The translations under genes were made by a program, and so were the position numbers. From assembly GCA_965217865.1 (NCBI GenBank), contig CBDCJO010000001.1, positions 512,001-576,000 of the forward strand: a stretch of DNA of 64,000 nt, read 5' to 3'. Position 1 is the stretch's first letter; each line of letters begins with the position of its first letter. This document shows positions 39,528-44,922 of the stretch, piece by piece. The stretch comes from Candidatus Latescibacterota bacterium (GTDB taxonomy: Bacteria; Latescibacterota; UBA2968; SICM01). Below the pieces are notes generated by a model. It searched no databases. It was given only the letters and a program-made list of their open reading frames with translations, and was not told where the DNA came from.

Positions 39528-42470
39528 TCATTTTCCGTTTTCTCCGTTCTCATATGTACCTAGACGACGTCCATCGGAAACCCATAGCGGCACCGGCCTC
39601 CGATAGAGCGGCTGTGTGGACCGCGTGTCTTCAGGATGTCTTAGCAGATAGGTCCTTGTGGCCTCTTTCGCAGATTCATCGATCTGATAGACGAGATAGG
39701 CCTTTTCAGCACCCTCAGCCTCCTTCGTCCTGCCCAGTGCCCGAAGCGCGAGCATCCTGTGATAATGGGCGACCCGGTGCTCGGGATCGATCTCAAGCAC
39801 ACGCCCCATAGCCTCCAGGGATTCGATAAACTTTCCGTCCAGGTAGAGGACCCGCCCAAGATTCGACCAGGCCGCCCGATCCTCGGGAAAGTCCTGAAGG
39901 ACCCGCCGGTAGGCATTGGCGGACCTTTCATATCGGCCGTCCTCCTGAAGCACGATCCCCCAGACCCAGGCATTCTGCGGATCGTTGGGTGACAAACCTT
40001 CGGCGATCTGGATCTGTTTGTAGGCCTCCAGGATATTTCCGTCTTTTACCGCGGTTCGGGCTAAGTTGCGGGGTCCGTCTGGCAGGTCCGGAGCCAGGGA
40101 GGCGACCCGTACGAAAGCCCACTGCGCCCATTTCGTCTCGTTCTGGAGGAGAAGCCCGATCCCGTAGTCGTTAAGTCTTGACCACGCCACCCCTGGCTTT
40201 ATCTCCGTTTCCACCGCTGCGATCCCCGCCCCTTTGGGAAGGACAGGAAGCACGACTTCGTCCTTTGCGATCTGGGTGATCGGAAGGTCCGGCACCCTTT
40301 CGAAGCCCGCAAACCCGACCCGATTGGCGTGGAAAGCGAACTCAGTGTACTTCCGATCGAACTTTCGCCAGAGGAGTCGGGCCCGCAACGTCAATTCATT
40401 GCTTGAGGGATTTTCCGGAACTCGGAACGAATATCGGGCGACATCAGCGGTCCCCGGTCCGATCACACGGACATAGACCGAAGTAAAGATGTCCTGGGCG
40501 TTGCGACGGTGGATCGCATTACCATAACGATCGACCAGGAGGGCCTTGTAGAAATGTGCTTCGGGGTCAACGTGACCGTCCGCTCGAACGAAACCGTTGA
40601 CCGCGATCGGACCGCCCTCGGAATCGACGACGGAAAATTCCAGCCAACCCTCGTTCGAATCATTCGTTCCGCCCGGGAAGGTGTGCCCGACACCCTGGTT
40701 CCGGACGACCACATCAACCGAGACTTCGTCTCCGGCTACAACCGCGGGACGGATCGCGTCCAGGGGACCGATGGGCGTCCCAGACTCCCCCCGACGGATC
40801 GCAAACAGATCCACCCGCAGTTTCTCATCCTGCAGGAACGATTCGATCCTCCCGATCGTTTCTTCGTCCCCACGCAAAAACGGGAGAGCGGTGTTAACAG
40901 CCAAAAAACGGTGAGACCTGACGAAGCCGTCCTTGGCCGCCACGTCCCCCCGAAAGACCTTTTCCAGAGGCATGTGACAGTCCTGGCAGATTCGCTTGTT
41001 CGATGGAAGATAGAAGGTTCGCGAAGCGTTGCGCGCCACTCCGCTGTCGTGCCAGTTGTCGAACTCATCCTGCCCTCGCACCCAGCGGTAGCCGTTCAGT
41101 CTGACATCTAGGCTTACTTTGTGGCAGGTTGCGCAGAACTCAGGGGACCGGAAGAACGGCTTGAGCATCTGGCCCTTGTGGACAGTGGGTTTTGCTTTGA
41201 GGGCTGCGTCATGGATTGCCTGACCCAGGGTGTTCTTCGAATCCGCGAAGAGATAGGGATCCTCCTGTTCATCCGCGATATTGTAACCCCCGTTTCCTGT
41301 CCGGTTGTGGATCTTATCGATGGCGTGACAACCCAGGCAGGTGAGACCGGCCTGAGCCTGTGCGCTTCGTCGGTCGATCGGTTCGGTCATCTTTCCGGCC
41401 AGCATCAACGCCGGGTCGTGACAGCCGGAACACCACTTGGACTTCACAGAGGCCTCCCGTCCTTTGAGTTCCTCGTAGTGGACGAGGTGGGCTTGAACTT
41501 CCGGATTGGAAGATCTCGAATTTTCACGCATGTCGTTGATCGTGGCCTCATAAAACGGATTGTTGAACGAAGCGAAGCGGTGGGCGGACCGGGACCACTG
41601 TTCCACGATGTCGGCGTGGCAGCGCGCGCAGGTCGCTGCGCCAATCTCTTCATTCACCACAAAGCCATATCGATCTAAGTCCGGGGAGAGCCGATCCGGC
41701 CGCGAGATGTCCCCTCGTGTGATGATCCGCGACGGCAGGAAGTCTCCCGTGGTCGTGGTCGCGGCTGACGGAAAGAACGGGCTGTCGGTCGGCACATAGT
41801 TTGCAGGGAGAAACCCGTCCCGAACGTAGGCGGTAAGGTCCCGGGCCCGGGCCCCGGGGCCCCTGTCTTTCCCCGCGGAAGCCGCAATCCGCGCTTCTTC
41901 GGTCAGGACCATCCCTCGGGGACTCATGCCGTGGCCGATGATCGCCAGGAAGGCAACTGCCAGGACAGCGGCGATCCCGTTCCGGATCGTGGTGCGTGAC
42001 GGTGCTGAGATCGATACCAGGCGGTGGTAGAGATAAACGGAAGGGACCAGACCCGCACAGACCACGTGAACCCAGAATGCCCACCGATTGTCACGGCTGT
42101 TGGCCGCGGTGAGGATAAACAGGCCGGTGACTGCAAGGACAAGGCCGCCGATGACCAGGGTTACCCCGGAGTTAATCGAGGTTGGGTGCCGCCTTCTCCA
42201 CACACCCGGCAGATGCCAGATGAGAAACACGACCGCGACCAGGACCATGGCCAGTCCCGCCCCGGTGTGCAGGAGAACCATCCCCTGAAAGAGCCTGGGG
42301 AGAGCCAGTTCCGTGAGGGCGAAATATCCGATGCCCGCCGCTCCGGCGACGCGATTCGCCAGGAGATAGAGCGTGTTTCCGAAGACGAAGACCCCAAGGG
42401 CAACGAGCAAAAGGAGGAGTCGTCGCTTTCCCCCTTTCAAACCGAATTGTTCATCTCGATCGTTCGGCAC
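39528..42470 (-). CDS. Membrane-anchored pentaheme c-type cytochrome with C-terminal TPRs
   Basis: About 5 N-terminal TM helices; CARCH, CSGCH, CLGCH, CATCH, CQDCH; TPR tail. Confidence 0.88.
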   Translation of the reverse strand: MPNDRDEQFGLKGGKRRLLLLLVALGVFVFGNTLYLLANRVAGAAGIGYFALTELALPRLFQGMVLLHTGAGLAMVLVAVVFLIWHLPGVWRRRHPTSINSGVTLVIGGLVLAVTGLFILTAANSRDNRWAFWVHVVCAGLVPSVYLYHRLVSISAPSRTTIRNGIAAVLAVAFLAIIGHGMSPRGMVLTEEARIAASAGKDRGPGARARDLTAYVRDGFLPANYVPTDSPFFPSAATTTTGDFLPSRIITRGDISRPDRLSPDLDRYGFVVNEEIGAATCARCHADIVEQWSRSAHRFASFNNPFYEATINDMRENSRSSNPEVQAHLVHYEELKGREASVKSKWCSGCHDPALMLAGKMTEPIDRRSAQAQAGLTCLGCHAIDKIHNRTGNGGYNIADEQEDPYLFADSKNTLGQAIHDAALKAKPTVHKGQMLKPFFRSPEFCATCHKVSLDVRLNGYRWVRGQDEFDNWHDSGVARNASRTFYLPSNKRICQDCHMPLEKVFRGDVAAKDGFVRSHRFLAVNTALPFLRGDEETIGRIESFLQDEKLRVDLFAIRRGESGTPIGPLDAIRPAVVAGDEVSVDVVVRNQGVGHTFPGGTNDSNEGWLEFSVVDSEGGPIAVNGFVRADGHVDPEAHFYKALLVDRYGNAIHRRNAQDIFTSVYVRVIGPGTADVARYSFRVPENPSSNELTLRARLLWRKFDRKYTEFAFHANRVGFAGFERVPDLPITQIAKDEVVLPVLPKGAGIAAVETEIKPGVAWSRLNDYGIGLLLQNETKWAQWAFVRVASLAPDLPDGPRNLARTAVKDGNILEAYKQIQIAEGLSPNDPQNAWVWGIVLQEDGRYERSANAYRRVLQDFPEDRAAWSNLGRVLYLDGKFIESLEAMGRVLEIDPEHRVAHYHRMLALRALGRTKEAEGAEKAYLVYQIDESAKEATRTYLLRHPEDTRSTQPLYRRPVPLWVSDGRRLGTYENGENGK

Positions 42471-42559: not shown

Positions 42560-42697
42560 GCTTCCCCCGATCGGATATAAACGGTCCCCCGTGAATAATC
42601 GCTCCTCAACGGAAAGCGTTACCTATGATTCCCCTTGTCCTGTAACTGAGCGTTTATATATTTCAACGACAACATTTCAACGGCAACCGAGGCAATA

Positions 42698-43302
42698 GTA
42701 AACCACCCCGCCCAAAGGGCGGGGCATTAACCACTCCCATCCCCAAACAGATCCAACTGTAGGGGCCCTTTCTGCTCTTGACGATGATACCGAATATATT
42801 GCTCAATCACTTCAGAAGTCACCTTGTCGCCTACGGTGCGGGCAAAATAACCATCTTCCCAGAATTCTCCACCCCATAACTCCCGTTTCACCTCTGGATG
42901 TTCTCGGAAGACCCCGCTGCCCGAAATACTCTTCAAAATGCCCACTACCTTAGAAATCGAATACCGGGGAGGAAACGACAAGAAAATATGCACATGATCT
43001 TCGGCCACTTCCATCTCTTGGATGTCAAAACCAAAATCCTCTGCTATCCGATGAAACAGCTTGCCCACATACTCTCGAAGGTCACCTCGCAAAATCCATT
43101 TCCGATACTTCGGTGCCCATACCAGATGATACTGGCTATCATAGACTGCGTGACTGGTCCGTCGGAGTCCCATCGTATGCCTCCTGAGTCGATATGAGTC
43201 TCAGTGGTCTGCACACGATAAGACAGCCTTTTAGCTTGCCTTCGGCAAGCTAAACTTTTCCTCCCCTTCCAAAGGAAGGGGTATCCAAGTCCAAATACTT
43301 TC
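42698..43302 (-). mobile_element. IS200/IS605-family element (tnpA only), 605 bp
   Basis: Subterminal hairpins CCCCTTCC-AAA-GGAAGGGG (43263-43281) and CCCCGCCC-AAA-GGGCGGGG (42706-42724); guide/cleavage pairs GATA/TCAT and AATG/TTAC. Confidence 0.88.
42727..43173 (-). CDS. tnpA: IS200 Y1 (HUH) transposase
   Basis: YHLVWAPKYR, DHVH, FWEDGYF, YIRYH; AGGAGG RBS. Confidence 0.96.
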   Translation of the reverse strand: MGLRRTSHAVYDSQYHLVWAPKYRKWILRGDLREYVGKLFHRIAEDFGFDIQEMEVAEDHVHIFLSFPPRYSISKVVGILKSISGSGVFREHPEVKRELWGGEFWEDGYFARTVGDKVTSEVIEQYIRYHRQEQKGPLQLDLFGDGSG

Positions 43303-44922
43303 ATGAAAGAACCGATAAAAAATCAATCATGGATTCTTCTTCTGGCTCTCTTCATCTGCGCAGACCAGGGCAATTCCGATGATCCAATGCCCGATGATCC
43401 ATCCCGGGCCATCCTTTTTTTCGGGAACAGCCTCACCGCGGGTTACGGCCTCGATAAAAAGGCGGCTTTCCCCGCCCTGATCCAGGAAAAAATAGACCGT
43501 ATGAGCTGGCCTTATATTGTTGTGAATGCGGGACTGAGCGGGGAAACATCCGCGGGGGGCCTCCGGCGAATCGATTGGATGCTCAAAAAACAGTTCGAAC
43601 TTATTGTGATCGAACTCGGGGGAAACGACGGCCTCCGGGGCGTCCCGCTGGAGGAGACCCGAAAAAACCTCAACGCCATCGTTGACCGAATTATCGAACG
43701 GGGCCCGCAGGTAAAAATCGTCATCGCAGGGATGCAACTCCCCCCCAACCTGGGTTCCGATTATACAGGTGCATTCAAGTCCATATATCCGAACCTTGCG
43801 AAAAAATACAATACGCCTTTAATCCCCTTCCTGTTAAAAGGAGTTGGGGGGGACCCGAATCTCAACCTGCCTGACGGGATCCATCCCAACGCCAAAGGGC
43901 ACAAAATCGTCGCGGAGACCGTATGGGCGACCCTCAAACCGATTTTGCAATCGATTCAAGAGGCACAAGCCGAGCCCCCGCCGGAAGGAATAAAGGCTGC
44001 GGTCGAACGCGTGGCCTTTGGTTCCTGCCTCCGCCAGGACAGGCCGCAGCCTGTCTGGAAGTCGGTCCTGGAAACCGCCCCTGATGTTTTTGTCTTCCTC
44101 GGGGATAATATCTATGCCAACACGACGGACCCGGAGGTGATGCGACGAAAATATGGGTTGTTGAACGGACAAGCGGGATTCAGGACCCTCAGGAATCGCT
44201 GTCGAATTCTCGCCACCTGGGACGATAACGATTACGGATCGAACGACGGCGGTGCAAACTATCCGATGAGAGGCCTTTCGCAACGGATATTCCTGGATTT
44301 CTGGAGATGGTCCGAGGGATGGTCACATCCGGGCGTCTATCAGTCCAGGATCCTCGGTCCGCCGGGTCAGGAAGTGCAGTTCATCCTTCTTGACACACGA
44401 TATTTCAGGTCAAACCTAGTAGGGGAATCCGGCCTATATCGTCCCAACGCCGAACCAGATGCGACCGTCCTTGGCGACCTTCAGTGGAAATGGCTCGAAG
44501 AGGAATTGCGCAAACCCGCCGAAGTACGGATAATCGCCTCGAGTATTCAGGTCATACCCACAGAGCACAGATGGGAAAAATGGGCCAATTTTCCCAGAGA
44601 ACGGGAAAGGCTTTTCGGGCTTATCGCATCAACGGGAGCCAACGGAGTCGTCTTTTTAAGCGGGGACAGGCACCTTGCGGAAATCTCCCGGCTGACGACG
44701 GGTGTTCCTTACACACTGTATGAAGTGACTTCAAGCCCGTTGAACCAGAAAGGAGGGGGAAGCAGCGCGGAGCCGAACCGCTTCAGGATAAGCCAGAGCA
44801 ATTATCGAGAGGGGAATTTCGGCTTGATCACCATCGACTGGGATCGTCGGGTTCTCAAGTTGGCCATCCTTAATGAAGGTGGAGCGGAAGTGTTTTCGCA
44901 GCGTGTGCCCCTGATACATTGA
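43303..44922 (+). CDS. TesA-like SGNH arylesterase fused to PhoD alkaline phosphatase
   Basis: Signal peptide; GNSLTAG, NAGLSG, GGND, DGIHPN; then FGSC, GDNIY, WDDND, LDTRY, SGDRH. Confidence 0.88.
   Translation: MKEPIKNQSWILLLALFICADQGNSDDPMPDDPSRAILFFGNSLTAGYGLDKKAAFPALIQEKIDRMSWPYIVVNAGLSGETSAGGLRRIDWMLKKQFELIVIELGGNDGLRGVPLEETRKNLNAIVDRIIERGPQVKIVIAGMQLPPNLGSDYTGAFKSIYPNLAKKYNTPLIPFLLKGVGGDPNLNLPDGIHPNAKGHKIVAETVWATLKPILQSIQEAQAEPPPEGIKAAVERVAFGSCLRQDRPQPVWKSVLETAPDVFVFLGDNIYANTTDPEVMRRKYGLLNGQAGFRTLRNRCRILATWDDNDYGSNDGGANYPMRGLSQRIFLDFWRWSEGWSHPGVYQSRILGPPGQEVQFILLDTRYFRSNLVGESGLYRPNAEPDATVLGDLQWKWLEEELRKPAEVRIIASSIQVIPTEHRWEKWANFPRERERLFGLIASTGANGVVFLSGDRHLAEISRLTTGVPYTLYEVTSSPLNQKGGGSSAEPNRFRISQSNYREGNFGLITIDWDRRVLKLAILNEGGAEVFSQRVPLIH

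Follow-up and report, generated by a model that had tools for sequence, protein, structure and literature searches.

The window, a 64,000-nucleotide stretch of a Candidatus Latescibacterota genome (G000), carries a 605-bp insertion sequence of the IS200 group on the minus strand at 42698..43302, directly in front of the start codon of a plus-strand gene, tesA-phoD. Positions without a prefix refer to the window, and the prefixes C1: and C2: denote contigs of G000. The element contains only tnpA (42727..43173, minus strand) and has neither terminal inverted repeats nor a target duplication. Its 148-aa product is a Y1 HUH transposase with the motif H60-V61-H62 and a catalytic tyrosine that is probably Y126; it matched PF01797 at 136 bits (cut-off 23) and NF033573 at 152.5 bits (cut-off 55). 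Subterminal hairpins lie on the minus strand at 43263..43281 (left) and 42706..42724 (right). The left-end fold had a z score of -5.15 and none of 200 shuffles was equally good; for the right-end fold z was -3.0, and 1/200 shuffles did as well.

The left guide GATA (43282..43285, minus strand; element bases +18 to +21) predicts a target TC.T, and the right guide AATG (42725..42728, minus strand) predicts TT.C. Both predictions, which the initial annotation had drawn from the guide/cleavage rule, agreed with the ends found, the pairs being GATA/TCAT and AATG/TTAC. The plus-strand letters GTAA at 42698..42701 read TTAC on the minus strand and form the right cleavage motif, the closing bases of the element; ATGA at 43303-43306 reads TCAT. 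The host target (T)TCAT (43303..43307, minus strand) corresponds on the plus strand to the ATG and the start of codon 2 of tesA-phoD, and a host T at 42697 (minus strand) occupies target position +1.

A Y1 HUH TnpA, subterminal hairpins, a fixed motif without duplication and guide pairing place the element in the IS200/IS605 family. It has no tnpB, is mostly filled by tnpA and, at 605 bp, falls within the range of the IS200 group (about 600-700 bp). By its testable defining features it is an autonomous member of that group. The tnpA stop codon and the right guide overlap at 42725-42729. A 12-base palindrome formed by the target and the first element bases spans the left junction (43298-43309), and its core eight bases are palindromic in every TTCAT copy. 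A search of Rfam with the window element and with a 208-bp relative described below returned nothing at the gathering level, only weak sub-threshold matches.

The intact tesA-phoD gene (43303..44922, plus strand) encodes 539 aa with a signal peptide predicted by eye, a TesA-like GDSL hydrolase domain, whose match fell below the NCBIfam equivalog cut-off, and a PhoD-like phosphatase domain. The same fusion occurs in P0002 and P0121-P0123. The protein of the window differs little from P0121 and shares its first methionine with P0002, P0122 and P0123; the called starts of P0124 and P0125 differ. No frameshift or stop was found in the tesA-phoD reading frame in G000, P0121-P0123 or P0002. Among genome-level relatives, 35/40 matched one of the domains and 0/40 the whole fusion; these genomes are too distant to supply an empty site. 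Among the 120 best matches only P0001 and P0002 list both domains, and the fusion looks lineage-specific. Class-level relatives have a stand-alone TesA, which at several loci converges on the same ABC permease. The intergenic region is shared with a divergent 980-aa ORF (39528-42470) that has TPR and multihaem-cytochrome-like matches.

The native Shine-Dalgarno sequence of the gene, GAGG, lies at 42689..42692 on the plus strand; in the empty allele, 5 bases separate it from the ATG. Its pairing energy with the 16S tail of the genome was -5.9 kcal/mol, against a median of -6.3 for 992 called starts. The insertion puts 605 bp between this sequence and the ATG at 43303. Across the last 25 bases of the element the pairing energy with the 16S tail was 0 kcal/mol; by this measure no replacement Shine-Dalgarno was present in the element end, and no upstream in-frame start was found in the empty allele. 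The insertion therefore removes the ribosome-binding site without replacing it, as the initial annotation had claimed in stating that the gene is separated from its Shine-Dalgarno sequence. Since the Shine-Dalgarno is separated from the ATG and the element end supplies none, the filled allele likely silences or weakens tesA-phoD. A terminator-like hairpin in the left end of the element (43230..43254, plus strand), 48 bases before the host ATG, likely stops read-through.

A sigma-70-like promoter match was present at 42635..42662 on the plus strand (9/12 positions), but it was at chance level: the scan found 2 such sites against 0.9 +/- 0.9 in shuffles. A connection to phosphate is not supported, its sole basis being the PhoD domain. 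Six RNA runs contained just 0.05-0.11 of the words, and none gave useful coverage of the gene. The leader before the Shine-Dalgarno contains a 14-base tandem repeat (42660-42687), and 39 bases (42573-42611) are missing from a divergent allele found in sequencing runs X3, X4 and X11.

Other copies in G000 defined the target and the ends. All 35 left ends followed TCAT, as expected from the TCAT target first proposed for the window copy, and 32 of them followed TTCAT. Right ends were TTTAC in 33/34 cases, with T as the next base in 32/34. Pairing left with right ends gave 31 elements, of which 12 are 604-605 bp long, four 317 bp and 15 229 bp. The window copy did not differ from two other copies, ten of the 11 other 604-605 bp copies had 0-5 differences, and tnpA was intact in 11/12 full-length copies. 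These near-identical copies with intact transposase genes indicate that the spread was recent. The four 317-bp copies are internal deletions of the same element, and the 15 paired 229-bp copies, all identical (e.g. C2:298260-298488), are a gene-less derivative of it. A further gene-less element of 208 bp has same-clade ends with an extra hairpin within the right end (C2:317214-317421, locus L105; C2:2852461-2852668, locus L102). Its guides obey the same rule, and an empty paralogue gives the same A↓ATGAA target (the arrow marks the insertion point). An autonomous parent for it was found in none of 60 relatives, and a metagenome scan gave 0 matches.

The ends define (T)TCAT↓T as the target, which reads A↓ATGA(A) on the opposite strand. 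A right end that includes the next T was considered and rejected. An interrupted ORF at C2:4501385 stays in frame only with a TTAC end, empty paralogues inside dispersed repeats align through the junction, and base 42697 is retained in an empty allele from run X12; the T therefore belongs to the host. The other copies, the empty paralogues, the frame test and the empty alleles together confirm the ends originally assigned to the window copy (42698 and 43302). Several copies (C1:338531, C2:1511683, 473495, 5161982 and 5252673) sit within other small dispersed repeats, and the left ends at C1:338531 and C2:1511683 occupy the identical position in members of a single dispersed repeat family. Dozens of near-identical copies of an unrelated repeat, about 1.53 kb long, lie on C2 (e.g. 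1052603-1054137), and a 5.7-kb block is present in exact duplicate around C2:1073223 and 3766725.

The guide rule was also assessed in relatives. In IS608, the first two guide bases are described as pairing crosswise with the first two bases of the cleavage motif (PMC5934647); the fourth guide/target pair was deduced here from the published pairs AAAG/TTAC and GAAT/TCAA. Among 80 related loci examined, the rule fitted 48 of 68 parsed left ends, whereas shuffled guides fitted a mean of 21.9 and a maximum of 34, evidence of covariation between guide and target in these relatives. Each of the 66 parsed right ends paired: 43 had a guide starting with A and the motif TTAC, and 23 a guide starting with G and the motif TCAC, under a parser that admitted only TTAC or TCAC. 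The right end was followed by T in 63/66. The TnpB domain PF07282 was not found in G000 (96% complete), while its control was positive in 8/14 genomes; in the search for IscB with PF14239, the control itself matched 0/14 genomes.

Natural alleles of the site were read from Logan contigs of 8 of the 21 listed runs (X1, X3, X4, X5, X6, X11, X12 and X14). In X14 the junction lay outside coverage. X1 and X5 were filled by the IS, their contigs (depth 8 and 4) crossing from flank to IS with no branch, and either run may be close to the source of the window. X3 contained a joint from 42697 to 43303 that skips 605 bases, at depth 13.2 and with a short side of 30 bases; letters inside the joint are not excluded. 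A flank contig of the same run (depth 25.9) ends at 42697. The joint is thus at about half the flank depth, which suggests, from contigs that do not phase haplotypes, that an empty and a second allele coexist in one sample. The X3 joint fits an empty site, where excised and never-filled alleles look alike. A divergent empty allele whose product starts M-E-I-S, as in P0002, was seen in X3, X4 and X11 and was the only allele in the latter two; X12 held another empty allele, starting M-E-N-S as in P0122 and P0123. The alleles of X4, X11 and X12 and one allele of X3 start with ATGG, which is not a target, so that the target is not conserved in these sister lineages. The empty-site junction that had been predicted was recovered in this way, through the 42697/43303 joint in X3, the base 42697 kept in X12 and the aligned paralogues. 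With the ends and the junction fixed, precise excision would restore the Shine-Dalgarno-ATG spacing, as first proposed.

In X6, two contigs (2202 and 6032 bases, depth 21 and 29) diverged from the reference exactly at the junction. Their letters matched the ends of the 208-bp element at 22/22 bases on the right and 18/20 on the left, and the left end was four bases shorter than in the 208-bp element of G000, which suggests end drift. This insertion was seen by its two ends, with no single record spanning both. From these letters, a different element of the same clade appears to have entered at the identical nucleotide. P0121, which is full length, has the two amino-acid changes visible in X6. 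The chance of a second hit at the same base is about 0.2-2%, assuming uniform use of 1540 non-coding motifs and a strain with 3-35 insertions, a figure that rests on one site and few strains. With three states seen (IS200, second element, empty), the tesA-phoD start site looks both reused and polymorphic.

The initial annotation further held that a TCAT target would land the element on start codons, antisense to the gene. Sites in G000 were collected for two element families, excluding four left ends without a right end, and 33 sites gave 30 independent ones after three duplicates were collapsed. Four of the 30 were start codons, each of a Pfam-positive ORF with the element antisense to it: tesA-phoD and the genes for a di-haem oxidoreductase, an HTH_17 protein and a protein with an NPCBM-associated domain. 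At the latter three genes the elements are of the 229-bp type (C2:5660720, 1022735, 1073223 and 3766725). The 72-aa HTH gene was counted as a start even though it is absent from the gene-caller set. The site at C2:2852461 was not accepted; it passes the ORF-length criterion but lacks a Pfam match and lies in DNA called coding.

A home-made gene caller gave 4956 genes. Of the 2918 AATGAA motifs in the genome, it placed 111 at starts and a further 51 close to a start and in frame with it. The four start-codon sites compared with 2.65 expected from all motifs (p 0.27) or 3.03 from AT-matched motifs (p 0.36). None of four start-codon criteria gave a significant excess (best p 0.096); the curated count against the gene-caller background gave p 0.08, and 4/24 non-coding sites gave p 0.24. 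A special start-codon preference was thus unsupported under these criteria and gene-caller tests, all of which lean upward and have little power (n=30, home-made caller). Deep coding DNA was avoided by 24/30 sites, more than the expected 15.8 (p 0.002). In four further genomes whose elements target TCAT, the raw count of start-like left ends was 2/15. As to a bias of the active strand towards the lagging-strand template, 14/33 sites are on the locally G-rich strand, and the skew is irregular. About one copy in eight therefore sits on a start codon. The motif together with selection against disrupted genes can account for this share, although a modest real excess may exist. Antisense landing on start codons does occur, as claimed, but without a significant excess over the motif and with 26/30 sites elsewhere.

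We consider it probable, though well short of certain, that the window holds a young copy at its normal target motif, which here is a start codon, that the insertion likely silences or weakens the gene, and that excision is likely a rare one-way reversion and not a regulated switch. According to the family literature, TnpA would locate its target through base pairing between single-stranded target DNA and the guide at the base of the left hairpin, and would excise the element without gain or loss of bases. Excision is described as single-stranded and precise, with the target kept (PMC3201880), and as coupled to replication (PMC5027513). Insertions within genes would be purged, and survivors would collect in intergenic DNA, roughly one eighth of them on a start codon. 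The tesA-phoD site seems to be either readily hit or of little cost when lost, since in another strain a second element of the clade appears to have entered at the same base. The step from filled to empty would be feasible but rare, while the step from empty to filled would compete with about 2900 motifs, which points to a ratchet rather than a toggle. In a Geobacillus system, excision is reported to exceed integration by orders of magnitude, an insertion in lacZ reverted, and loss of the element was permanent when TnpB was absent (bioRxiv 2023.03.14.532601). Without TnpB, an excised site would likewise escape re-cutting here. As causes of the reuse of the site we rank a hot or dispensable site first, selection for lower expression second and true cycling third.

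Selection for lower expression could act in parallel in several strains: if loss or reduction of the exported TesA-PhoD were favoured in some hosts or conditions, independent start-codon insertions would be selected and reversal would be unneeded. Two different elements at one nucleotide (G000, X1 and X5 against X6), the unbranched filled allele in X1 and X5 and its missing Shine-Dalgarno speak for this. However, ordinary mutations would inactivate the gene too, and the ORF is undamaged in G000, P0121-P0123 and P0002. Target use is also uneven in any case, as the two left ends at one position of a dispersed repeat family indicate. We regard this explanation as unlikely, although it fares best among the alternatives.

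Next in rank, and likewise improbable in our judgement, is a nearly neutral insertion, in which expression of the gene would continue, driven by a promoter facing outward from the left end or through translation starts that need no Shine-Dalgarno. The ORF is intact, roughly one called start in ten has pairing weaker than -1.1 kcal/mol, and Salmonella IS200 is described as producing an antisense RNA opposite the 5' region of tnpA (PMC4513863), a direction that here would run toward tesA-phoD. Against this, the scan found no plus-strand promoter-like site within the element, the terminator-like hairpin stands ahead of the ATG, and the pairing energy across the last 25 bases was 0.

The site could also serve as a reusable landing pad. 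Several TCAT-targeting IS200-clade elements would alternate there, and their scarless removal by TnpA would act as a TnpB-free ON/OFF switch on an exported esterase-phosphatase, made possible by a single codon-2 base that sister lineages lack. We think this doubtful. Least probable is a reversible switch resembling phase variation, with TnpA repeatedly inserting (OFF) and precisely excising (ON) and both states kept, as at IS492/eps and IS1301/siaA: the geometry is ideal, family excision is described as scarless (PMC3201880; lacZ reversion in bioRxiv 2023.03.14.532601), three states exist, tnpA is intact in 11/12 full-length copies and no TnpB was found to re-cut an empty site, but the element is dispersed over the genome (35 left ends, 2918 competing motifs), the related system integrates orders of magnitude less often than it excises (same preprint), the contigs of X1 and X5 are unbranched, the empty allele may never have been filled, and ATGG replaces the target in X4, X11, X12 and one X3 allele. 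The scarless switch suggested by the initial annotation gained no support as controlled switching, with its promoter match at chance level and its phosphate link coming only from the PhoD domain. The second element at the same base in X6 and the probably mixed population in X3 do speak for more than chance.

The preferred reading, a young copy at an ordinary motif, shows how an ATGA-type target drops elements between the Shine-Dalgarno and the start codon. Because such insertions spare the ORF, the annotated gene looks normal although it is probably off. Should reuse by the second element reflect cycling, this would amount to phase variation by peel-and-paste elements. In the open-access literature we found no description of such phase variation, nor of an IS200/IS605 element between a Shine-Dalgarno and a start codon. 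Insertions of IS492 in eps, IS1301 in siaA and IS5 at fucAO are comparable, with insertion inactivating and precise excision restoring the gene (PMC5493358). Those cases have a single hotspot and measured reversion, whereas the window element has 35 left ends and is known here from sequence; the locus does not yet qualify as IS-mediated phase variation of the IS492/IS1301 type.

Salmonella IS200 resembles the window element in having a single tnpA and left-end inverted repeats, one of them a terminator, described as bidirectional; it is longer, at 707 bp against 605 bp (PMC4513863). Unlike it, the window element has a defined (T)TCAT↓T target and IS608-type guides. The gene-less 229-bp and 208-bp elements of G000 resemble PATEs in their near-terminal palindromes and absence of duplication (PMC3119063), while the window element is autonomous. 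A precedent for the target is given by IS605B-1_MA and the ISC elements, whose N↓ATGA target is the same on the other strand, with insertion directly before ATGA and no duplication (Kapitonov et al., PMC4810608); these carry TnpB or IscB, whereas the window element has TnpA only, and the term 'start codon' is absent from the main text of that article. N↓ATGA targets are already published. The window finding is real and mostly ordinary, and the site is possibly a hotspot.

In IS608 of Helicobacter pylori and ISDra2 of Deinococcus radiodurans, as in the window element, the cleavage motif pairs with a guide located at the base of the hairpin, and insertion occurs 3' of a short motif without duplication (PMC5934647). 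The same source gives +1 preferences of about 70% for IS608 (TTAC↓C) and about 90% for ISDra2 (TTGAT↓G). The window element differs in lacking tnpB, in its TCAT target with a +1 T and in a guide at +18 to +21 instead of +16 to +19. In a transposase-only clade that prefers T at +1, it is a clean natural case of the IS608 guide rule, and its locus provides three natural alleles.
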